Shown here piece by piece: positions 2,142 through 38,445 of a stretch of 64,000 nucleotides of DNA. Location: assembly GCF_000181795.1 (NCBI RefSeq), contig NW_003526944.1, positions 5,417,816 through 5,481,815 of the forward strand, written 5' to 3'. The notes below the pieces were generated by a model. The model saw only the letters and a list, made by a program, of their open reading frames with translations, was not told the DNA's origin and did no database searches. Numbering within the stretch: position 1 is the stretch's first letter; every line of letters begins with the position of its first letter. This DNA comes from Trichinella spiralis (lineage: Eukaryota). The position numbers and the translations under genes were made by a program.

Positions 2142-2949
2142 ACAAGATTTCAAACAGCGTCCATTACCACACAAATGGACAGGGTCATCTCTTTAAAACC
2201 GGTCTCTGGCCAGTACGGGACTAGGAGGCTCCGCCGAGGGAAGTCCCCGTTAACGGGCAGGAGGGCGGGGGGCGGCGCGGGGGCGGTCGGGCTGAAAAAA
2301 AACCTTGCTTGAGATCCCATTGCTGGGATCCGAGCAAGGCGGCAGGCCTCTGGTACCGCAACCGGGAGAGGAAGAGGTGAGCTTTGAAAATATGGACTTT
2401 CATCATTTGATACGGTTAGGGTCGCGTCGTGCAGTGTAACCCGTCGAACTCCTGCACACCACCCTATCTCACATTCCTCCTATCCTTGCACTGCTATTCT
2501 CAAACATTTACTTATTCTAATACTCAAACTATAGCAGTGCTACAAACTCACTATGCTCAAAATGTCCTTTGAAATGATCGTCAAATTATTCAATCATTTC
2601 TCTTTCCGCAAATGAACCCTAAACTCAACTCGACAAGGCATGGGACGTGAAAACGTTCAAATGCGGAAAGCCACTCAAATTTATTATAATAATACTCATG
2701 ATCTACATCCAGTTACTCTAATTAACAAACATCTGAATTAAATGCTCGATAACTTACAGCTCGAATTTATATAAATTACAGACTCAAGAACTCCTCAGTG
2801 AAGTTTAACTAATTAGCCTAACTCAAAGAATTATACTTACCAAACTTACCCCTTGTCTTTGGGATGTCTTCTTTTATCTTCTATTCTTCTGTATCTAAAT
2901 GTTGGAGAATTAATTTAATGAAGTAATGTTTTAATAAATAAAAAAACAA

Positions 2950-3625
2950 AGCCGGTTTTAATGCTCTTCTTCGTCTGTCATCGTATTGAAACGCCATTGT
3001 TCATTCGCCGCACATCGTTCGCCTACAATCATTTGAAATGAGTTTCTGGAGCGACTAATAGTCGCCTCTGGAAAATTTACATAAAGTTCATTTCTACTGA
3101 TTATCAAGTATGAAACGAATTTTCATTTAGTTAAACCAACACTCTCATATAGTTCAAGTCATATAAGCACTAAAGCAAACAAATTGACATATGGTGAGGG
3201 CAAATTTGCATACAAACTAGATAACAGCCGCATGCTTGAAGAGATNNNNNNNNNNCTTTGGAATGACTGCATATATCCTCTAATCATCTGCATCTAATTG
3301 CTGAATAATTTGCTCCTTTTATTTCTGCTTTGCATAATATGTGAAAGTACCGATTTTAATGCTCTTCTTCTTTGTCATTCTATTGAATCGTATTGTGTTT
3401 CACCGCACATCCTGCGCTGAAACTTCCCGAAATGAGTTTCTGGAGCGACTAATAGTCGCCTCTGGAAAATTTACATAAAGTTCATTTCTACTGATTATCA
3501 AGTATGAAACGAATTTTCATTTAGTTAAACAAACATTATTCAAGTCATATAAGCACTAAAGCAAACAAATTGAAAATGTACTCAAATTTGCATACAAACT
3601 AGATAACGCCCATGCTTGAAGAGAT
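2950..3625. repeat. ~290 bp direct duplication (~2950-3245 and ~3350-3625) flanking the N gap at 3246-3255
   Basis: Identical core gaaatgagtttctggagcgactaatagtcgcctctgg...catgcttgaagagat in both copies; ends are more divergent. Confidence 0.8.
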
Positions 3626-5752
3626 AACATTCTATCATATCTTAAAGCATATCTTGCTTTACATTTAACGCGAAAATGAATTGATCAGATGTCGTTCAAC
3701 CCTGCTATAAGTCAACAGTCTGTGTGACTGGCGCTCTGCTAATCTGATGGCAATTTTCAAATGGCCCAATTTGCATAAAAGTCAGGCAATGCTCATGCAG
3801 CCAAATAAACCGGCGTAAGTAAGTTGAATGTGCTACACAGAGATGAATTAGGACATAATCTCAACATAATATAAACAATGTGCCCACGTTGGCTGCGCCG
3901 CTTGATCAACAAAATTAACTGGATGAAAATTTTGATTCATTTATTTTCTTGATGATGTAAAATTTTAAAAACAATATTAAATGATAATGAAATTAAATAA
4001 TTTATGTATGAAAACAGTATTTTTCTGACCTGCATAATAGAGAACACTGTGCGCTTAGTGATATTCCACCTGTTCAATTCAGAATGAAATTGAATGCTAT
4101 AAGCAAGTGAAAATTGAAAAACTTATCGTCTTTTACAGTTAAATCTAGATTATTACGCAAAGTAATAAATTGAAAAATGAATTTGATCAGAGCCTACAAT
4201 GTATAGATTTATGTACTTAAGAATTCTGTATAAAATTGTTGTGCATATTTATTCAAAACCTACGTAAATACAGAAAAATACTGACGCTGAAATATACAAA
4301 GCACAAAAAGTATGAGTACAAAAAGTTTTGACATTGAATTTTTTTCTGAATACAGCTTTTTTCCCTTGCAGTTAAGTTACGCACCGCCACCGCTAATCAC
4401 ACACCAGTGAAACGAGATATCAAATATGGATGCAATGTTCGTTCTTCTCTGATGAGGTCGTTTCTTTCAAACCTTCTTATCAGTAATTTGGCAATTAGTA
4501 TACTGTATAGAACTGTATTTATAATTATTAATTATATTTCCATGCTTTCATTTTTGAAATATACTTCAACTTAATAGATGATGATGTGCATAATAGATCG
4601 ACACTTTGCACGCAGAATTAAAAATTCTTTAAGTGAGATAGAAATTCTTATAAAGATAAATTTTCACCTCACTTCAACATGAAAAGAAAACAAAAATACA
4701 GTTTTACTTTGAAAAATATCTTACTTACATCTAACATATTACAAACTTCACTAACTTAATTAAACAAAGGAATAACTCCTGTTTATAGAATCATCCCAAG
4801 CCAAACGTTACAGAATCAGCATAGAAAAAAATCGCATTTACCCTTTGTGTTCACATGTTTTACTTCGTGTTGTCTGCGTTTTCACTTTTTCTTTATCCAT
4901 TTTTATTCCTGCAAAAGTGATATTAAATGAAAAATTTTGATGCTTTAAACACATAGTAAAAGATGCAACAAATATGAAATTGAATTTTCAAATATATCCA
5001 ATTAATTATTTTCAATTAAATGATAGTTATTTACAAAATAAGTATCAAATGCTTTGAAAAAAACGAAACCAAAATAGAAAAATATGATGCCTTTCAGCAA
5101 TTGAAAACTGACTTCAGTAGTTACTGAACGCCACTAATAAAATCAGAGAATCTTCATAGGGCTGCCACTTGCCAGAAACCAATACAAGATTACTGAGAGT
5201 AAGGAAATTTTTAAAGGACTCTGATTTGCATATTGTGGCGTTAGAAATGGGTTTTAGTGCATTTGAAATTATTCTCAAAGATGAATGCTAACCTGCCGCT
5301 GATGTAATGGAAATTATAGATATTCATGTACAAAGAATTAGTAATGTAGCAGATAGAAACGGTTACATTAAACTTATTTGAATCTGATTTGAAAAAACAG
5401 TTCAAATGTCTTGTAAAATTCACCCAATGATAACTATTTAAAAGTTCAGAAATCACCTTCACTTTCAGAGATATCATCATTTAAAAATTCTGTCAAAATA
5501 TAACTTTTTGACAGAATACGTCATAACAAAAAATTTACTTAATTAAAATATGCCATCGCATGTCTGAATCTGAGATTTGAAAATTCAAAAATGGCCTACA
5601 TAAATAAAACCCATGGCGAAAGCTTTTTAAAAAAATATATAAGCGCACTCCCATCACGCGCTGTAAACAAAATTAAGCAGAGAATCAACATTAAGTAATT
5701 TATCGAAAATTTCTAATTATGTAAAATTTCAAAAATGTTAACACAATGCGAT

Positions 5753-5894
5753 AAAAGGATAGAGGAACATGCTGAACACGCTTGCATCTTTATCAAACTT
5801 CACTCTCTATCCAACTCGTGCCCATTTTATAAGGGTGCACAAGCCGGCATATCAACCTTCAGTGGAATACGAACATGCGGACGTTTCCACTGCC
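5753..5894 (-). ncRNA. Candidate structured ncRNA, array copy 1 (unknown family)
   Basis: 5' GGCAGUGGAAACG...CGUAUUCCACUG hairpin; stem CCGGCUUGUGC/GCACGAGUUGG with 3 G-U pairs; 3' GGAUAGAG...CUCUAUCC followed by UUUU; TTTAAATA at -30..-23. Confidence 0.6.
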
Positions 5895-6249
5895 AATTTC
5901 AAGGAAAACTTTTATATATTTAAAATTAAAAGTATAAATCATTAATGCTTTTTAATTTTTTATTTCTGACCCAAATTTTTGGAATTTTATAATATTTTTA
6001 TTTAAATAATGCCCATTGAAATTCTTTTCAAATACACATTCTTTTCACCACAAATACTGAAATTCTTTTCTTGCATATTTGAAATGATTATTATTCTTTA
6101 AAGCAGTTTCATTTTTGATAAAACCTTTATATGAAAAAAAAGTGTGAAATACCTGCAAAACGCAATGTTGAAATGTTCGAAAATTAAATTTATATACGCC
6201 TTATCATCCACAGTCCACCGCACAGTGTTAGCAATGCTCAGCGCACGAG

Positions 6250-7086
6250 TTATGACAGACAGAAGGAACAGGGACTGCGGAAGGAGTGCTTTGGAAAGTT
6301 TATTAGACATAGATAATTTTTATCCTAAAATGGAACAAACTTTAATATCCGACAATATGAGTACTTTGGAACCACGTGCAGTGTGCATCAATGCGGTTGG
6401 AAATAAAGAATGTTCTGAAGCAACATCTGAAACTGTTCTTGAATTTTTACTAGAAAACCTTAATGAGAAAAGCAGTGGCATTTCCAAAAAGTTGTTCAAT
6501 GCGATGAAAAATAGAATAGAAGAAAGCAGAAGCGTATCACTGTGCGGCTTATTGTATTACATTAATAATCTTTCTTCAAACTACGTTTGCTCATCAAGTT
6601 CAAGTTGTATACTAACCTGGATGAATAAACGAGGCATGAAGGTTACAGCGAAGGAACTGCCTGATAGGATGTTCAAAATCCAGATCAGAATAAACATTAA
6701 CGGATATGGTAATGATAGCGAAAAAAGGGATCTTGATATAAGTGAAAGTATCGCGGACCAATTTGATACACTGATCAGAAAAGGAAAGTATTTTAAATGT
6801 GACGCGATGGATAGTTGTTTTGGTAAAGACATTATGCAAATTATCAAGAACGAAATGGTTTCCTTCGAGCCGATAGCAACGTCCAAGGACAATACAAATA
6901 TCATACGATGCACTTATAACAGTACCAACGACATCCTGTCAAGCTGAGGGAAGCTTCAGCGCAGCTGGACGTTTCGTTACAATATTACGATCGTCTTTGA
7001 AAGACAAAACGATTGATACGCTTTGGTCACTACTTTCACATCTTATGCAAAGCAGAAATAAAAGGAGCAACTCACTTAGCAATTAA
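6250..7086 (+). mobile_element. Frameshifted C-terminal fragment of a hAT-superfamily transposase
   Basis: ORF 6144-6947 contains LEP...LEFLLENL...LFNAMKNRIEESR...GLLYYINN. A shifted frame from ~6920 reads VPTTSCQAEGSFSAAGRFVTILRSSLKDKTIDTL, matching the hAT dimerisation motif P-x-T/S-S-x-x-x-E-R-x-F-S...R-x-x-L. No TIRs seen. Confidence 0.8.
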
Positions 7087-7492
7087 ATGAATTTAATAAA
7101 TGGAAATATTCAATTAATTGGATCAATTAAAAAAAATGGAATGCCTTCCAGCAATTTAAAATAGACTTCAGAGGGCAAAAGTCACCAATTAAAAATTCAG
7201 GTAAAATGCAAACTGCCGGGCTGCAAGCCAACACAAAAAAATTTGTTCAGACAAAACGAGCCTACAGATGTCAAAATTTGAAAATTCAAAATTAAAAAAT
7301 AACGCACATAAATGGAACTCAGGAAAAAAGCTTTTCACATAAATGTAAAGACTTTTGCTTATTGCTTTAAAAAAAATTAAACAAACAAAAAATGTAATTT
7401 ACCAAATATTTCAGATGATGCAAAATTTCAGAAATAATAATGCAGTGATAAAATAAAGTTGAAAAACTTTCCGCACAGAGTATTTTGGTTGG

Positions 7493-7645
7493 AAAACAAT
7501 GCAATTCAGTAATGAAACAAGATATTGAAAGGTTTCATATCTCTGTTCTGTTGAATGGCGGACTTGTTTGCTTCACTTTGTAAGAGTGCGCAAACCACCA
7601 CGTCAACCACCAGTGGAATACGAACATGCGGACGTTTCCACTGCC
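7493..7645 (-). ncRNA. Candidate structured ncRNA, array copy 2
   Basis: Same 5' hairpin; stem GUUUGC-GCACU/AGUG-AA-GCAAAC; long 3' hairpin at 7504-7556; TATAAATA at 7668-7675; ends at UUUU. Confidence 0.62.
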
Positions 7646-8613
7646 AATTGAAAAATATTAATTTTAATATTTATAATTAGAGCATAGTTTTGTTTTTCAT
7701 AAAAGATTTTTTATGAAAGAACAGCATATATAATAAAACTAAATGATGGAAGTGCTCATAAGCAAAATTACTATACGCGTTTCTGACTAATGTATTGCTT
7801 TAAAAAAAAATATTCTTTTCTCCATATCAGATGCTACTTCGACTATATTATAAGATTTGCAACATGAAAATGAATAAATACATTTTATTCAAATACTATT
7901 CAGTAGTTTCTTAGCTCAGCTTAACTCTCTTATTTTCGCTCATTACTCTACATGTAATGAATAATATTAATTTGCGACAATTAAATTTCACTTAATTTAT
8001 TCAATTTTTGAATATAAAAAATTGTAACTGGTGCAGAAATATTAATTGATTTCAGTAATTCGCTTTTAAAAATAATTGGTTTATAATATATTTGTTTTCT
8101 TTTAAAAATATAAATACATGAACAAACCGCTGTTGATTTTAAACATAAAATTTTACACAGAACAGATCTATTCTTAATAATGCTTAATATAATCATGTTC
8201 AATGATTATAAATTAGCGGACGTAATTGAAATAATAGCAATTCATGTAAAGTAACCGGATAATTTAGAGAGTGCATTGCATTAAAAAAGAATAATCATGT
8301 GCAAAAAATAGAGATACCGTGCCAAATTCAACCAATGAAAACAATTTGAAAATTCAAAGATGACCTTGATATTTAAAATTCAGTCAAAATATAAATTACC
8401 GGGCAGAAAACGCCATAACAAAAAATTCACTTAGACAAAACACGCCCCGCATGTCTGAATTTGAGATTTGAAAATTCAAAAATGACCCACATAAATGGAA
8501 CTCATGACAAAAACTTTTCACAAAAATGTAAAGACTCTGGTTTTTCGCTTTGACAAACAAAATTAGCAAATCAAAAATGTAATTTATGAACTTCTTTTAA
8601 TTATGTAAAATTT

Positions 8614-8789
8614 AAAAGAATGCAAATGCCAAGTGTGAAACGAAAGCACTTATCAGAAGTATGTGCTTTTTGGCGTACTAGGAATTCTGCTAGCATTCCT
8701 CTTTGGCTACATCTGCGCGCATTGTAAGAGTGCACAAATGGCCACATCAACCACCAGTGGAATACGAACAAGCGGACGTTTCCACTGTC
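8614..8789 (-). ncRNA. Candidate structured ncRNA, array copy 3
   Basis: Same 5' hairpin (starts GACAGUGG); stem CAUUUGUGC/GCGCAGAUG; TATAAATA at 8812-8819; ends at UUUU. Confidence 0.6.
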
Positions 8790-8983
8790 GAGTGAAATGA
8801 ACTAAGTTTCATATTTATAATTAAAGCAAAGTATTATTATTCTTGATTTTATTTTTGATTTTTAATAAATTTGTTTGAATACAGTATATTAAAAAATACT
8901 AATATCATGTCAAGAAATTAATTTTATAATAAAAATTTCAATTTACGTCTAGCATGAAAATAAAAATATTTCATTTTATCTTT

Positions 8984-8987
<4 letters not shown>

Positions 8988-9013
<26 letters not shown>
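8988..9013. repeat. (TA)n microsatellite
   Basis: Perfect TA run. Confidence 0.95.
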
Positions 9014-9014
<1 letters not shown>

Positions 9015-9501
9015 GATTTTTGCTGTTTTCTCTATGAAATTTATTTGAAACGTTGCAAAGCGTAGATTGCTTGCAGCCCTTCAGTGCTTTTTGTGTCTAA
9101 GGAAGACTGCTCCTCTAATGTTAGAGGTACTCAATCTGAACATCAACCACCAACTCAATAGCAATTAAATGAATTTAATAAATGGAATTATTCAATTAAT
9201 TGGATCAATTAGAAAAATGGAATGCTTTCCAGCAATTTAAAATAGACTTCAGAGGGCAAAAGTCACCAATTGAAAATTCAGGTAAAATGCAAACGATGCA
9301 GACTGACACAAAAAAATTAGCTCAGACAAAACGCACCCACGCCTGTCAAAATTTGAAAATTCAAAAATGACGCACATAAATGGAACTTAAGCAAAAAGCT
9401 TTTCACATAAATGTAAAAACTTTTGCTTATCGCTTTTAGAAAAAAAATTAAACAAACAAAAAATGTAATTAACCAAATATTTCAGATGATGCAAAATTTT
9501 C

Positions 9502-9681
9502 AAAAATAATACTACGAAGTGATAAAGAAGTGTCGAATACTTTACCCTAGAAGTGCTCTGTTGTGTCACTGAGGGACATAAAGCATCTTTGCTTTCGTCC
9601 TTATTTCCACACTTTGTAAGAGTGCAGAAACCCTGAAATCAACCACCAGTGAAATACGAACACGGAGACGTTTCCACTGCC
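9502..9681 (-). ncRNA. Candidate structured ncRNA, array copy 4
   Basis: 5' hairpin with a G-C to G-U change; 11-bp stem GUUUCUGCACU/AGUGUGGAAAU; TATGAATA at 9704-9711; ends at UUUUU. Confidence 0.6.
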
Positions 9682-9922
9682 AATTAATATAATATAATTT
9701 TTATATTCATAATTAGAGCAAAATATTATTATTTGCGACATTTATGTTTGATTTTTAATAATTTTGTTTGAACACAACGTATTAAAAAAGAAATATCCAT
9801 GAAAAAGTTAATTTTTTAAATACATATTTAAATTCATGTGAGCATGAAAATAAAAATATTCCATTTCATTATTAACATATGATTTTTGATATTTAATGTA
9901 TCAGTTCCACTTGAAAAGTTGT

Positions 9923-10090
9923 AAAACGTTCACTGGTAGGTAGCATTTCAGCACTGCTTGCAATTTCAAGGGGGCATTAAGCTGGATGCTTGTACTTCTT
10001 CACAACACCTCCTTTTGTCGTGTTACCATTGGAAGTATTCAAACCGCCACATTATCCAACAGTGGAATACGAACATGCGCTTTCACTGCC
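9923..10090 (-). ncRNA. Candidate structured ncRNA, array copy 5 (divergent subfamily)
   Basis: Shortened 5' hairpin GGCAGUGAAAGCGCAUGUUCGUAUUCCACUG; TATACATA at 10113-10120; different second and third stems; ends at UUUU. Confidence 0.45.
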
Positions 10091-11915
10091 AGTTGTAACG
10101 AAATAATTTTCATATGTATAATTATGCCAAAATATTATTATTCGTGACATTTATTTTTCATTTTTAATAAATTTATTTGAATACAACATTTAAAGGACAG
10201 AAATATCATATTAAAAAAATTTATAATCAAAATTGAAATTTACTTGCAGAATGAAAATGAAAATATTTCATTGCATCATTTACATGTGTGATTTTTGCTA
10301 TTTTCTGTATGAAATTTATTTGAGAAGTTATAAATGGTGAATTTTCCGTTCGTGTTCAGCGCTTTTCCTGTCGAAGACCATTTCTACTCAAATTTTAGAG
10401 GTATTCCAGTCACCACATCAACCAACAATGGAATACAAACAAGGGAACGGCTGGACCAACTGTAGCATTTAAACTGCTTTTATATTTATAATTAAGAGTA
10501 TAAATTATTGTTGTCATTTAATTTTTTATTTTTAACCCATTTGTTTTGAATTGCATAATATTTTTATTTAAATAATTGCCGTTTGCATATATTGAAATTC
10601 TTTTCTTTTATATTTGAAAAGATTATTATCATAAAAAGCACAGCTTTGTTTTTGATAAAATTTTTTTTATGAAAAAACGAGTGAAAATAATAAAACTAAA
10701 TGGTAGAAATGCTTGCAAACAGAATTAATGTACGTGTTGCTGTCTAACGTATTGTTCTAAATTAAGAATTAAATGTGGAGGAAAATCTGCACAAAAGGAA
10801 AATATTGTTGTCTCCATATTTGATCATACTTCGACTATATTCTTAGATTTGCAACATGAAAATCAGTAAATACATTTTATTCATATGTTATTCCACAGTT
10901 CCGTAGCTCAGTTTAACTCTTCTATTTTCCCTGATTACACTACATGTCATGAATAATATTAACTTGCAACAATTGAATTTCAATTTTTGAATATCAAAAG
11001 AAGAATTTACATTTAGTCGTAATCGTTGCAGAAATATTAAGTGATTTTGATTTTCAAAAAATCCATGCAATATAATACGGTTGGACTAGTTATACGTTAA
11101 GCGAATGAGAGGTGCTAGCAAAGAAATGGATTTTAAGCAACGCTGATTTTCACAGTATACGCCTAGCGTTCATCACTTGAATTCAACGCTGTATTAGATT
11201 TCCTGCTGAATAAATAATAAATTCTTACAGCATCTCAACCAAATGTAGGATATAAAAAATTCAGCTTCTGGAAGATGCTCATTTTTTCCCCATGTTATTT
11301 CACTTTTAATAATAATTAGTGTATATTTGTTTTCTTTTCAAAAACTTAAATACCTTAACAAACGGCTGTTGTACAAAAGCATGAAATTTTGCATAAAACA
11401 GATCTATTTTTAATAATGGAAAACAGAATCATTCTCAATGATTATAAATTCAATATCTATGTTCAACAGTATTTTGATGTAATTTGAAAATGAAATGTAA
11501 TTTACAGAAATAGTCAAGTTTCTATTATTTAGAGATAAATTTGTTCGTACTGTTGTAAAAATTGATTACTCAATTTCAATCAAACTTTTGATGCTTGTCA
11601 GGCATTTTTTTTGAAAACATCTTCAAAATGCACTGGGAATCATTGAAATGTCACTTTGTTTGTTGAAGAATAAAAGAAATGTTAAATGTGATTGTAGAAA
11701 GTTTTCCAGAAATAGAAAAAAAAATTTAAGTTATATTCAAATTAATTTATTATTAAATGAAATATTTTTTTTATCACAATGCCTTCGAGAAAAAACAATT
11801 TGGCTATCTGGTTGATGAAATTCGTTAAAAATGCAAAACAATATATACAACAAACAACAAATTTCATTTGATTACGACTTTCAACTTAAATTTTATGAAA
11901 AATATCTATCCAATT

Positions 11916-14900
11916 CTAATCATCAGAATCGTTTGAATCGGAAGAATTTCCAATGTCTATATCCCTGTCTGGATCTTCACTTACATCTAAGGCAACTGAT
12001 GAATTTGCAGCAGAATGATCTCGTTTCAAACCTTCCACCATTTTTGAGCATGTCGGTTCAGAATCATCTTGAACAACCACCGTTTGTTGTTGCTTCTTCC
12101 ACATTTTCGCTAAAGCCAATAATTTAAGATTTGCAGTGCCTGCTTCGTCTGCCGGAAATATATAATCGTAATATTCTTCCCAACCAATTTCAGTCTAAAA
12201 TATTGAATAAAAAGAAAAACAAAAATAAAAGAACTATTTTTAAATTCAAATAATCATACCCCATTTTCTGCAAATGCTTTTCTTCTTTTCTTCACTCGCT
12301 TCGGCATTTGCGATTCAACAGCATTCAAACTATCCGCATCACCATGTTCCTTCTGCAAAAAACAATGAATGACACTCAAATTAAAAATCCACTTCACTTA
12401 CGTATTAATTGTTGTGCAAAATTTCACAATATTATACATTCAATTGTAATGGTAAATAAAAATAAAATTCCATACAAATCACATTTCTTACTTCGAATTC
12501 TCTCCACGTTTGCAATAGCAAAACTCGTTCTTCTTTACTTTCACAATTTTGCAAAGCTCTGTTCGCTTCTTGGTACACAGATCTGGCGCGGCCAACGTTA
12601 CCATCGTCTTCAACAGAAAGCTCAAAACGAGCAAAACTAATCCAAACCTATATTAATTTTTAAAAAAATCAAAAAATAACAATTAAAAAGTACAAAATAA
12701 TTTATTTCTACCTTGACTTGCTGGGTTTTTGAAAGTAATCGCTTATACAACTTTCTGGCCAACCCGTATTCACCTTGTCCAATTTCAAAATCGATGTACG
12801 ATTTCCACAATATTTCCGGCATATCCATCGTCTCCCACGAAATGGCTAAATCATAAATCGCCCGAGCACGATCAGTATCACCCAAAAGGGTTTCCAATTC
12901 TGCATACTAAACATCAAAAGCATAAGTATGAATTTGATGTATAATTCATTTCAAAAATCACTTACTTTAATCCAACTTGCACAATTTTCAGGACAAAATT
13001 CAAGCAATTTGCCATACAATATTCGGCAACGGTCAAATTCACGAAGCCTCAATTCTAAATCAATGTACTCACGAAAAAGTTTCTCTTTTGGACACCTTCC
13101 AATAGCATTTCCCTGAAATTAGATTTATCGCAATAAATACAATCTTATTACGAATACGTTCACGGCATGTAAGTATGTATACTAAAATATGCATACTAAA
13201 ATTTTTCTCGCTGCCTTTACATCCAACTGTCTTATTTCGAAATAGGCAAACAATAGCCAAACTTTAGCAAAAGTGAACTTTTTGTGCGGAATCACTTCCA
13301 AACACATTTTGTAAACTTCTCTAGCGCGTTCCATGTCGTTGGCTTCCAGTTCTTCATAAACAGCATAATTAATCCATAAATAAATGTATCGTTTCCAATA
13401 AATTTTCACCTAAAAAAACAAATTCGTAATATAATTTGCAATTGCAATTATTGTATATAGATATTTTTTTAATACAGGTTTAGGTGGAACATTAGAAACA
13501 GCTCTTTCGTAAGTGTCACGTATGAGATCAGCATCGCACTGCTCACTTTCCAATAATCTTAAATAATCAAACCAGGCGTCATAATTGAAAGAATTCTTTT
13601 CCAATTCTTCTTCATAATGTCTTCTCCGCTTGCCGACTATCACATGTTCAATCCCAAATTTTTCGCCATATTTTTTCTCATGAATAGCATAGGCCTTTTG
13701 TATTTCGGCAAGTTTATCTTTCGGCAAATTGTCCAAGGCATATTTGTAAATTACTCGAGCACGATCGTGCTAAAACTTTTTTGCAAATTGCATAAAAATA
13801 ACACAAATAAAGTAAAAATAAATTAATAAACCTCTTTTTGATTTTCTTCAAATTTTGCAAACGCTATCAAAATATTTTCGTTCATGTGCTGCAAACCAAA
13901 GTATTCTACAGCACGCTCAAATACCATACGAGCGTTGGTTATTGATTTTTGACGCTGTTCAAATTTCGCATAACGAATCCAATTCTTCGGATCCGGATGA
14001 ACATTTATAAATCGCTGCCAAATATTCCTAGCACGATCCACTTCTTTGTAACGCATCTCGAAATTGATGTACGTATTCCAAGCTTGTTCACCTGGTTCCC
14101 ATTCCATCCAACGCTCAAAAACTTGCCTAGTTCCAGGAATATTGCCAAGCATCTCTTCCATATAAGTGTACTTCAACCAAAACTGTATAGCACGTGGTAA
14201 AATAGAGATGGCACGATCCCACACATTGCGTGCGTGATTGATTTGCCGATTGCGGATTTCCATTTCAGCGTACTGCAACCACAGTGTTATGTTCCTGTGA
14301 TCAACATCCAGAGCTCGTTCGAACACTGACCGACTTCGTTGCATTTCTCCCTGACTTTCTTCCCATTTCGCATATTTAATCCAATTGCAAATGCTATTTC
14401 GATTTTTACGTATGCAATCTTCGTATTCTTTTCTCCGTCTGAATTGATACTCTTTCAATTCTTCTGGATCGCTGATCTTTTTCTTTGGAGGCTGAAATGA
14501 AAACAAAAATGAAAAATAAAATAAAATATAACCAATCAATCAACTGAAAATTGTAATACCGGAGGTAAAATTTCCAAATCTCGTTCTTTTGCTTCACGAA
14601 GAAGTTGTTCCGCAGTTATCTGAATTGGTGCTGGTGCTTTGTTTTTCACCTAATACAAAATAAATTGAAAATTGCTTTACAAAAATACATTCCTATATAT
14701 TTATATGAATTTTAAACAAATTCCGAACACTTACCGTTAATTTTGAAAAAAACATTTCACTAAATAACGCAATATAAAAATATACAAAAACACACAGTGC
14801 CGTCAAATTAGTTCAGTTGCAAGCTGTTTATTTGATTAAAAATTTTACCTGCAACCACTGCACTACAACATACCTCAAAATTTAATATATACATATATTA

Positions 14901-36652: not shown

Positions 36653-38445
36653 TCAATCAATGTACTGCGCAAGCCAACGGAAGCCTTCACCGTAGCCTTG
36701 TCGTTTCAACACGCTACACATAAATACTTCAATTGGGCGAGAAGACATTTCCGCTCGACTTGTGGCATTCTGAAGAAAAAAACAAACAATTTTCCAATTC
36801 CAAGCAATATCCATCCATTAAGTATAAGAAAAAAACAAGAAACTAATTTAATAATCTTTTCCATTAAACAAACAACAACATATTATGGTTAATATGTTAG
36901 AAATAATTGATCACATTCCCCTTCCCCATTTAAAATTATTTCCCAAAAAGGAAACATCAGAAATTACTATTCATAAAAACTGCATTCTGTTACACAATGA
37001 ATATAAAAAAACAAAAAATGCATATTTGCATTGCTAATGAAACATTTGGAAGTGAAAAATTAAACATTACACTTCCTTTCACTTCTGTCAGTTTAATAAG
37101 CTTGTATTTTAATGCAAACAACAAAAAAAACCAATACCTTGCCTGTCGTCAAACCATACAGACCCATCACACTTTTCAATTGCTCTTCTGATATTGCAGT
37201 AGCTTTGTCTATTTTATTTCCAAGCACTAACACTGGACAAGATGCCACTTGTTCATCCATCAAAAGACTCTAAAGCAAACATACATAATGAAACATAAAT
37301 TGTTTCATTAAACAGTACAAACATACTAAAAAAACGAAAGAACTTGAGCATCATAATAAAATGACGATTATTCAAAATACTGTAAAAAGACAATGTACTC
37401 GTAAGTCAATGAAATCTCACCTCCAATTCAACTTTTGCTTCACCCAAACGCTCAGTATCAGCTGCATCCACCAAAAATACTATAGCGTCGACAGCTGGAA
37501 AATAATCTTTCCATACTCTACGAGCTGAAAAATTTTTAATTCACCAGAACCAAAATCATCATTTACAAAATGGCAATAATTGATTTATTCATATAACGAT
37601 AAATAATTATCGTCACAACCATTCATCATAAACTGTGCATTTATACGGAAAATACAAAGGTTACATACCTTGAGCGTGACCACCTAGGTCAAATGTAGTA
37701 AACTTCATTCCCCCTAAAGACAGTTCTTCCGATGCTATACAGAAATATGTAAATAGTAAAAGTTAACATTTAAAACAATATAAGTATACTTGGATGCAAT
37801 GTTGGAACGTGTTGCGCCATACGATCATCTTTCAACATATGCAACAATGTCGTCTTACCGGCATTGTCAAGTCCAAGAAAAACTAGCTTTCCTGACTTTT
37901 TATAAAGACCTAAAATTCTTCCACACGATATTTTTTAAACTATGCAACAATAGCAAAAAAGACTAGTTTCAGTATTATTAATGTCATAATATAACACAAA
38001 AAATTTAATCAGCAATAATGTCATTAAACTTATGGTTAACAGAATCAGGCCAACACATTGAACATAAACATTCTAAATATTCGTATATACATATGCATAT
38101 ATGAATATGAAAACAAAAATATAACCAATAAAAGAAAGAAAAAATAAATCAAATAAAATAAATTCATTCAGAAATAAGAGTATATTCAATATCAATTGAA
38201 CACCGGACAGTTTTCGAGAGAATATGAGTTTCATCATAAATCAAAGACTTCGATATCTCTACAACTTAAATAATATTATAAAATGGGTGAGTATTCATAG
38301 CCTCAATTATCATAAGTTACAGTTTAATTAACAAAACACAAATATAATATTTCTTCAACAAACTAATTCTGCAACATAATAAAAACTTTTTGAGAAATTT
38401 ACCTAAGAAATTGAGTATACCAGTTAGCCAATCCCACATCCACAT
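36653..38445 (-). CDS. SAR1: Sar1 small GTPase (COPII), 6 exons
   Basis: [35 protein letters not shown]...[17 protein letters not shown]...LGNKID...[23 protein letters not shown]. Confidence 0.98.

Follow-up and report, generated by a model that had tools for sequence, protein, structure and literature searches.

A tandem minus-strand cluster in Trichinella spiralis that likely encodes a new family of structured non-coding RNAs

The window analysed here, 64,000 nucleotides of Trichinella spiralis contig NW_003526944.1 (positions 5,417,816 to 5,481,815), is AT-rich animal DNA with introns. On its minus strand we found a head-to-tail array of repeated units, likely genes of a non-coding RNA family, comprising five intact units whose conserved 5′ ends (heads) lie at 10090, 9681, 8789, 7645 and 5894, a decayed unit at 10460 and a truncated, headless unit near 9150. 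The array starts about 1 kb downstream of the 3′ end of crn (crooked neck), near 11479, on the same strand; a crn exon of 222 residues is 100% identical to a protein cluster named Trichinella nativa crooked neck-like protein 1 (27 members), and a Trichuris protein matches the same exon with 82% identity. A first-pass annotation had placed five minus-strand heads at these positions, and all are present, with two corrections: the copy at 10090 reads GGCAGUGAAAGCG, with a loop 4 nt shorter, and the copy at 9681 has CGUAUUUCACUG, in which one G-C pair has become G-U. It had missed a 13-nt TATA element at −34, the sixth and seventh units, and the extent of the duplication, which covers about 1 kb per unit with flanks included and is far larger than the RNA it proposed. 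Aligned blocks between units span 200–640 bases, again including flanks, and are 69–79% alike. There are two subtypes: the units at 5894, 7645, 8789 and 9681 carry a common U-rich block 280–470 nt downstream, and the remaining units pass directly into the upstream region of the next unit. Profile searches of the 64 kb revealed no additional intact unit. A covariance model built from four copies gave 11 matches in the window, namely the four training copies, unit 5 (39.8 bits), unit 6 (19 bits) and five others, of which four on the plus strand are mirror images of the head hairpin and one, at 37504, is noise. The units are tandem duplicates of about 1 kb and likely genes of one undescribed non-coding RNA family, which we propose grows via local duplication and loses copies through decay.

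In front of every intact unit lies the 13-nt TATA element TAATTATAAATAT (at most one mismatch), which begins exactly at −34 in all five, with TATA itself at −30. It has ten matches in the 64 kb; six stand in front of units, and one more follows shortly after the cluster, on the same strand. The predicted start base is G in every intact unit, and several units share a similar A-rich stretch at about −70 to −45, the upstream element being only loosely alike. An orphan TAATTATAAATAC element was seen at 4515–4527, on the same strand as the units, and about 110 nt later a stretch at 4385–4415 recalls the 3′ half of the head and the linker that follows it; neither the covariance model nor the profiles scored this stretch, which is possibly a very old unit.

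The head forms a 35-nt hairpin (hairpin 1) whose CAGUG/CACUG core, within an 8-bp local stem, is invariant in the five intact units. After a 2-nt spacer it is followed in copies 1–4 by the linker GGUUGA, as first described. Sequence identity, calculated as the mean of six pairs among the four full units (the pair 9681–10090 was dropped, as the segments overlap), is 0.92 over +1 to +35, compared with 0.53 for unrelated window DNA. It is 0.80 in the TATA block, 0.57–0.77 in the flanks, 0.73–0.77 over +36 to +70 and 0.53–0.56 in the body (+71 to +160). The head is conserved above flank level, and the body has diverged below it.

Stem 2 varies between copies and remains paired. The four pairs of arms quoted in the first-pass annotation are all present, and when each copy is folded by itself, 31 of 32 cells at +51 to +58 are paired, 7 through G-U. 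Changes on both sides occur at +51, +52, +55 and +56, including a G-C to C-G swap, already reported, at +55. It had also been argued that the G-U-rich pairing points to the minus strand. This holds for the stem 2 region, which folds better on the minus strand in all four copies (−18.9, −15.8, −16.9 and −12.0 versus −8.8, −12.1, −13.5 and −5.7 kcal/mol), whereas hairpin 1 alone folds about equally well on either strand. Fold z-scores of hairpin 1 lie between −3.2 and −3.4 for three copies and between −1.6 and −1.9 for the other two, and folds of +1 to +190 contain local hairpins only. In a neutral-drift simulation with a star tree and no indels, a rough null only, at least 31 of 32 pairs were kept with a probability of 6e-5 to 0.03; a weaker, energy-based drift test gave 0.004–0.11. 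From the window alone, selection on the structure is likely and covariation suggestive. No shared reading frame was found in the units: the longest ATG frames, of 30–48 codons, differ between them, and a small common protein was therefore rejected. A small GACA...UGUC hairpin with G-U pairs on the minus strand was observed inside the downstream block of three of the four units that have one (8435–8456, 9317–9346 and 7235–7272), and by eye an expressed relative retains it with another loop.

Transcription was examined in a raw RNA run (X7, about 18% of which was read) and an RNA-like contig set (X8), both carrying the same species label. Two other contig sets, X14 and X17, hold only 9 and 3 contigs, gave no alignments and are uninformative; a run search with a 5-kb stretch showed it to be contained in six datasets from two studies, none recorded as RNA. 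Over 717 nt an X8 contig is identical to crn, indicating that X8 is from the same species, and for X7 the same conclusion rests on the label and on 5 of 234 reads that aligned full length. X7 reads were aligned at 93% likeness and at 84% likeness, the latter with the last crn exon as a control. All reads on the minus-strand crn gene were first-mate plus, which fixes the orientation of X7. Read in this way, the head at 8754 is covered by 66 first-mate plus and 2 first-mate minus reads, with crn at a depth of 2–5, and the downstream U-rich block by 56–62 plus and 1–3 minus reads. The block was also found in 13–17 X8 contigs, one of which (depth 47) links it to a head. At 93% likeness 42 X7 reads aligned, all of them partially, and the head reads continue for 100–115 nt into sequence absent from the stretch. 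These continuations run into family-type hairpins, with a consensus agreement of 0.86–1. Four different 3′ continuations, three from X7 and one from X8, each form by eye a second stem in the expected place (AUUGUGCA/UGCACGAU; UGGGUAU/GUAUCCA; AUUCG/CGAAU with UACC/GGUA; UUUGGUU/AAUCAGA), which in three cases includes G-U pairs on the same strand, and thus represent further family members. Minus-strand transcription, as predicted from the letters, was therefore observed directly for other members of the family in the same species.

These data also bear on the 5′ end. Of the reads at 93% likeness, 26 lie on three heads (at most 10, 8 and 8 at 5894, 7645 and 8789) in one orientation, and the loose ends of head reads, among those listed, are all on the 3′ side. 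Their median lengths (115, 102 and 104) fit 151-nt reads beginning about 6 nt inside +1. Furthermore, an X8 contig of 412 nt and depth 95.5 has one end at +3. Together, the TATA spacing, the geometry of the head reads and this contig end support a start at the G of the head, where the 5′ ends had been predicted. We consider it highly probable that transcription begins there, and three subfamilies appear to start at the head.

The length of the product is a different matter. An RNA of about 140–180 nt, made by RNA polymerase III (Pol III), had been suggested, and the units indeed contain no run of four U (U4) before the proposed 3′ end: the first run of at least four U occurs at +139, +150, +173, +176 and +165 in units 1 to 5, and the GC content falls near it from about 0.4 to 0.22–0.30. 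Yet the relatives' RNA extends far past these runs. The block is read as deep as the head on the same strand, one contig joins the two and another runs 412 nt from +3, and the RNA runs on for 400–500 nt. On this path it crosses many U4–U8 runs. Pol III should not pass them, so the main form seen is a long, RNA polymerase II (Pol II)-type transcript, and the short product is not supported as proposed. We lean slightly towards a primary transcript of at least 400–500 nt of the Pol II type, in which the first 140–190 nt would be the folded, GC-richer working part and the U-rich tail a trailer.

The best-surviving alternative is a U6-type Pol III gene (upstream element plus TATA) whose 140–180-nt RNA ends at the first U4–U5 run, the longer reads being Pol II read-through of neighbours. 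Of the features of a type 3 Pol III promoter, the TATA near −30 is present, as is the G start, and the A-rich stretch upstream is similar in several units; the upstream element shows a loose similarity. The position of the first U4 run near the GC drop in all five units would suit such a terminator. First and second mates are about equal in number on heads and block (20 and 22), which fits short fragments; the cluster follows crn at a distance of about 1 kb on the same strand, and some reads span promoters. Libraries of this kind under-sample RNAs shorter than about 200 nt, and a short Pol III form hidden in this way is possible. However, the equal depth of block and head, the contig linking them and the 412-nt contig ending at +3 are hard to reconcile with this alternative, the polymerase would need to pass many U4–U8 runs, no 3′-end pile-up is seen among the ends listed, and the head has no internal A or B box within one substitution. 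Even with the putative Pol III promoter that accompanies each Caenorhabditis elegans stem-bulge RNA (sbRNA) gene, according to the available text of PMC4450293, we regard it as unlikely.

Several results weigh against a long, selected RNA made by these units and started at the head. No read or contig of X7 or X8 covers the unit bodies of the window's own copies, so the prediction of minus-strand transcription is borne out for relatives and not for these five; over a unit body, X8 contigs reach a likeness of at most about 87%, and at 84% likeness 229 of 234 X7 reads are partial. The window's copies may not be expressed, may be expressed only at certain stages or may give RNA too short for the libraries. 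The read alignments revealed no common start place at 93% or 84% likeness, and at the latter 16 reads, among the loose ends listed, extend upstream past the head (median 65 nt). A further 5–6 reads align upstream of the head, and contigs of depth 15 and 39.5 lie over promoter-side DNA, indicating that part of the signal is read-through. The under-sampling of short RNAs means that the long form is perhaps over-counted, and poly(A) selection is not on record for X8. Whole-domain fold z-scores are modest (−2.6, −3.0, −2.1, −1.5 and +0.2). Finally, the claimed covariation, suggestive though it is, was not significant when a single fixed MAFFT alignment was used: three double changes are reached in 33 of 500 shuffles, the share paired in 102 of 500 and a third covariation measure in 178 of 500. 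This is because the 3′ arms stand in different registers and four sequences only were compared.

Taking both sides together, we are confident that this is a real transcribed RNA family under selection. It is likely a new, lineage-specific family of structured, protein-binding non-coding RNA genes, a reading that, taken as a whole, we see as evenly poised. Each unit would be started by its own TATA promoter at the predicted G, and the RNA would fold into the fixed 5′ hairpin, a putative protein-docking handle shared by all members. One protein would recognise the head, with the rest of the RNA supplying shape or stability; a near-invariant head, an unpaired GGUUGA linker and free sequence change in a body that keeps its pairing are what would be expected in that case. 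On this model the RNA might act as a scaffold or decoy in an RNA-protein particle, the hairpin and linker binding one common protein and the later hairpins needing only to stay double-stranded, a function for which we find the arguments balanced. Structured RNAs of clade I nematodes are barely mapped. At least seven units of this family stand in one cluster, and at least a dozen related transcribed sequences occur elsewhere. Its head depth in total RNA, summed over members, is more than ten times that of the neighbouring splicing-factor mRNA. With a constant 35-nt handle common to all members, a single oligonucleotide could probe the family.

A non-autonomous mobile or repeat element (SINE-like, that is, resembling a short interspersed element, or rolling-circle), with hairpins kept for mobility and incidental transcription, would also produce tandem units of about 1 kb with similar flanks and at least 13–17 related contigs elsewhere, and single-stranded DNA would tolerate G-T pairs too. 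The head loosely recalls the consensus tRNA A and B boxes, and a GC-richer conserved head, an AT-rich tail and many copies are general features of tRNA-derived SINEs. However, homology extends well upstream of the start, with the TATA at a fixed spacing, which retroposed copies would lose; the units were duplicated together with the external TATA and upstream flanks, and the TATA region, too, is matched by contigs of the relatives. No A-rich tail or AATAAA occurs within 600 nt of the start in the five intact units, which have no poly(A) tail; among the 25 longest of 196 inverted-repeat pairs none is a long terminal inverted repeat. Judged by the general consensus, none of the five units has a B box within one substitution, nor an A box at the head. 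The RNA is moreover strand-specific and well above crn depth, and we consider such an element improbable.

Another explanation, which we find quite improbable, is that the family is the missing clade I branch of the Y RNA/sbRNA group, rearranged so that the upper stem became a local hairpin, and that by analogy it would support the initiation of DNA replication. As defined in the available text of PMC4450293 and PMC4726728, these RNAs have a terminal stem, a lower stem with a bulged C and an upper stem with A/GUG-CAC/U, and sbRNAs also have a UUAUC loop motif. The CAGUG/CACUG core holds the AGUG-CACU form of the upper-stem motif in all five intact units, and in the same part of PMC4726728 the upper stem by itself is enough for vertebrate Y RNA activity in vitro. 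As with the many sbRNA genes of C. elegans (available text of PMC4450293), there are many diverged genes with their own putative upstream promoter and a constant stem beside a variable remainder, and the accessible part of PMC7445429 has Y RNA undescribed in T. spiralis. In a post hoc test, a random 8-nt arm contained the motif in about 4% of cases. In contrast to Y RNA and sbRNA, the Trichinella motif is part of a local 5′ hairpin whose loop has 10 nt, and not of a stem closing the whole RNA, the variable part is 3′ of the stem, and the relatives' transcripts, at 400–500 nt, misfit a length of 100 ± 20 nt. In folds of +1 to +190 we found no pairing of the 5′ and 3′ ends and no helix resembling the bulged-C lower stem (the Ro60 site). 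GGUCC, which we take to be the lower-stem motif, is absent from the first 200 nt of the five intact units, and UUAUC is missing from the start of the loop, occurring only at +141, +157 and +195 in three of the five units, far from hairpin 1. The family is not a member of the sbRNA/Y RNA group; only the upper-stem motif is shared, and by analogy the head hairpin may work like the Y RNA upper stem. Very improbable, in our view, is a clade I counterpart stripped to the AGUG-CACU replication helix at the 5′ end of a diversified longer RNA. According to the available text of PMC7445429, the muscle cells inhabited by Trichinella larvae re-enter the cell cycle, and the larvae release unprotected RNA inside them, so such Y-like RNAs could also act on host nuclei.

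The least probable explanation of all is a precursor role for the long transcripts, as primary microRNAs or as 5′ leaders or outrons of downstream genes, with hairpins as processing signals. It could draw on their length and U-richness, a 58-nt stem 2 in unit 2, UUCAG followed by ACAUG in two of the four blocks and the 213 novel microRNAs of T. spiralis (available part of PMC3212509). But hairpin 1 is only 35 nt, the stem 2 arms lack sequence conservation, and comparison by eye with the 20 abundant novel microRNAs of Table 2 in that paper gave no match to a unit. The acceptor-like AG is missing at the corresponding place in two of the four blocks and the frames after it are not common, and X7 has no splice joints, with 13 reads crossing that place unspliced.

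The features of the cluster are collected in Table 1.

Table 1. Features of the unit array, in window coordinates
Feature	Position	Strand	Remark
Unit 1 TATA-type element	5916..5928	-	34 bases before +1
Unit 1 conserved 5′ hairpin	5860..5894	-	8 bp, bulged A, 3 bp, 10-nt loop
Unit 1 stem 2	5811..5847	-	11 bp, 3 G-U
Unit 1 structured domain	5753..5894	-	to first U4 run (+139)
Unit 1 downstream U-rich block	5426..5616	-	
Unit 2 TATA-type element	7667..7679	-	-34
Unit 2 conserved 5′ hairpin	7611..7645	-	
Unit 2 stem 2	7550..7607	-	with outer extension
Unit 2 structured domain	7493..7645	-	to first U4 run (+150)
Unit 2 downstream U-rich block	7137..7324	-	
Unit 3 TATA-type element	8811..8823	-	-34
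Unit 3 conserved 5′ hairpin	8755..8789	-	
Unit 3 stem 2	8704..8744	-	
Unit 3 structured domain	8614..8789	-	to first U4 run (+173)
Unit 3 downstream U-rich block	8334..8508	-	relatives transcribed on minus strand
Seventh unit, headless	9060..9153	-	linker and body only, like units 5 and 6; borders approximate
Unit 4 downstream U-rich block	9217..9393	-	
Unit 4 structured domain	9502..9681	-	to first U5 run (+176)
Unit 4 stem 2	9603..9631	-	11 bp
Unit 4 conserved 5′ hairpin	9647..9681	-	one G-U
Unit 4 TATA-type element	9703..9715	-	-34
Unit 5, second subtype	9923..10090	-	shorter loop, other stem 2, no downstream block; to first U4 run (+165)
Unit 5 TATA-type element	10112..10124	-	-34
Unit 6, decayed	10381..10460	-	5′ arm of hairpin gone, linker retained; model score 19 bits
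Unit 6 TATA-type element	10482..10494	-	

Other features of the window were noted as well. Between units 2 and 1, a stop-free plus-strand frame of 270 codons (6135–6947) has 65% identity over 83% of its length to the T. spiralis hypothetical protein T01_9761 (710 aa, PF27039), its sole match at E up to 1e-8; the window's piece has no Pfam match and is probably a degenerate insertion in the array, copied from a lineage-specific gene or element. An inverted repeat of 82 nt, 82% complementary, has its arms at 3268–3349 and 7031–7112, 3.7 kb apart, and may represent the ends of an old DNA element. Two tandem duplications, each interrupted by 10 N, pair 976–1554 with 1565–2141 (97% alike) and 2857–3245 with 3256–3625 (79% alike), and the first may be an assembly artefact. 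The crn gene occupies 11479–14539 on the minus strand, with its mRNA 3′ end extending at least to 11479, and an exact contig of 176 nt and depth 3 at 10832–11007 hints at crn read-through toward the cluster. By Pfam, 40266–62617 encodes a PurA protein, a tyrosine-kinase-like receptor with immunoglobulin-like exons, presumably PTK7, and an ELM2/Myb protein.

The units were also compared with known RNA families. Rfam 15 gave 0 hits at the gathering threshold in the 64 kb and, at E up to 10 in 5000–11000, six sub-threshold hits, none on a head or stem 2, in agreement with the first-pass annotation, which had described a multicopy minus-strand structured family outside the families it knew. One of these hits, to Dictyostelium Class I RNA at 7139–7215 on the plus strand, was rejected as noise (20.6 bits against a threshold of 41.5). 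ARAGORN found 0 tRNAs, and the RUGAUGA box of C/D box small nucleolar RNAs occurs in none of the five units. The four units searched contain no CCUAA or UUAGG telomerase template in +1 to +520; the telomere repeat is TTAGGC in the available text of PMC9071541, which does not give it for Trichinella itself. No description of the family was found in the open literature searched, subscription papers being outside its scope, so that a buried mention is conceivable. An exact head-motif search returned only papers unrelated by title, head motifs are absent from the 11 of 12 supplementary files of PMC7668243 that were covered, and 12 of the 13 supplements of PMC4323106 gave only unrelated matches.

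A metagenome scan with a relaxed head pattern returned 16 loci; by eye, all of them lack both the CGUAU bulge and the upstream TATA element, and they were accordingly dismissed as chance hairpins. Six of them (L002, L005, L008, L013, L014 and L016) fit the pattern with a 38-nt span, and all of these except L016 share one GC-rich hairpin in similar flanks, which is unrelated to the nematode family and perhaps a bacterial terminator or repeat. A bacterial promoter and terminator scan is not applicable to a nematode.

Three kinds of RNA invite comparison. Like the spliced-leader RNAs of Trichinella (15 leaders, up to 48 genes, in the available text of PMC7986045) and nematode SmY RNAs, the units are multicopy, polymorphic genes for small structured RNAs, in the former case within the same genus. 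Unlike leaders, the heads are read into their own second stem and not into mRNAs. By eye no head matches any of the 15 known leaders (21–24 nt, all ending in AAG), AAG|GU occurs in one of five units, at +36, and no Sm-type site lies before +159, late matches in two of five units falling within AT-rich DNA. The earlier view that the family is unlike tRNA, spliced-leader RNA and Y/sbRNA thus holds, apart from the upper-stem motif. Dictyostelium Class I RNA and primate snaR are lineage-restricted multicopy structured RNAs that resemble the family in their general features, namely expansion by local duplication, a conserved 5′ motif, a variable body and an own upstream element; they differ in architecture and lineage, and neither a sequence nor a model match was found on the units. 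The kind of family is therefore known in general, as clustered multicopy RNA genes with their own upstream promoters, and the architecture is its own: the head is fixed, the body has changed faster than the flanks and yet remains folded, and the tail is U-rich. This build is unusual and would illustrate how a new family of RNA genes evolves in a parasite.

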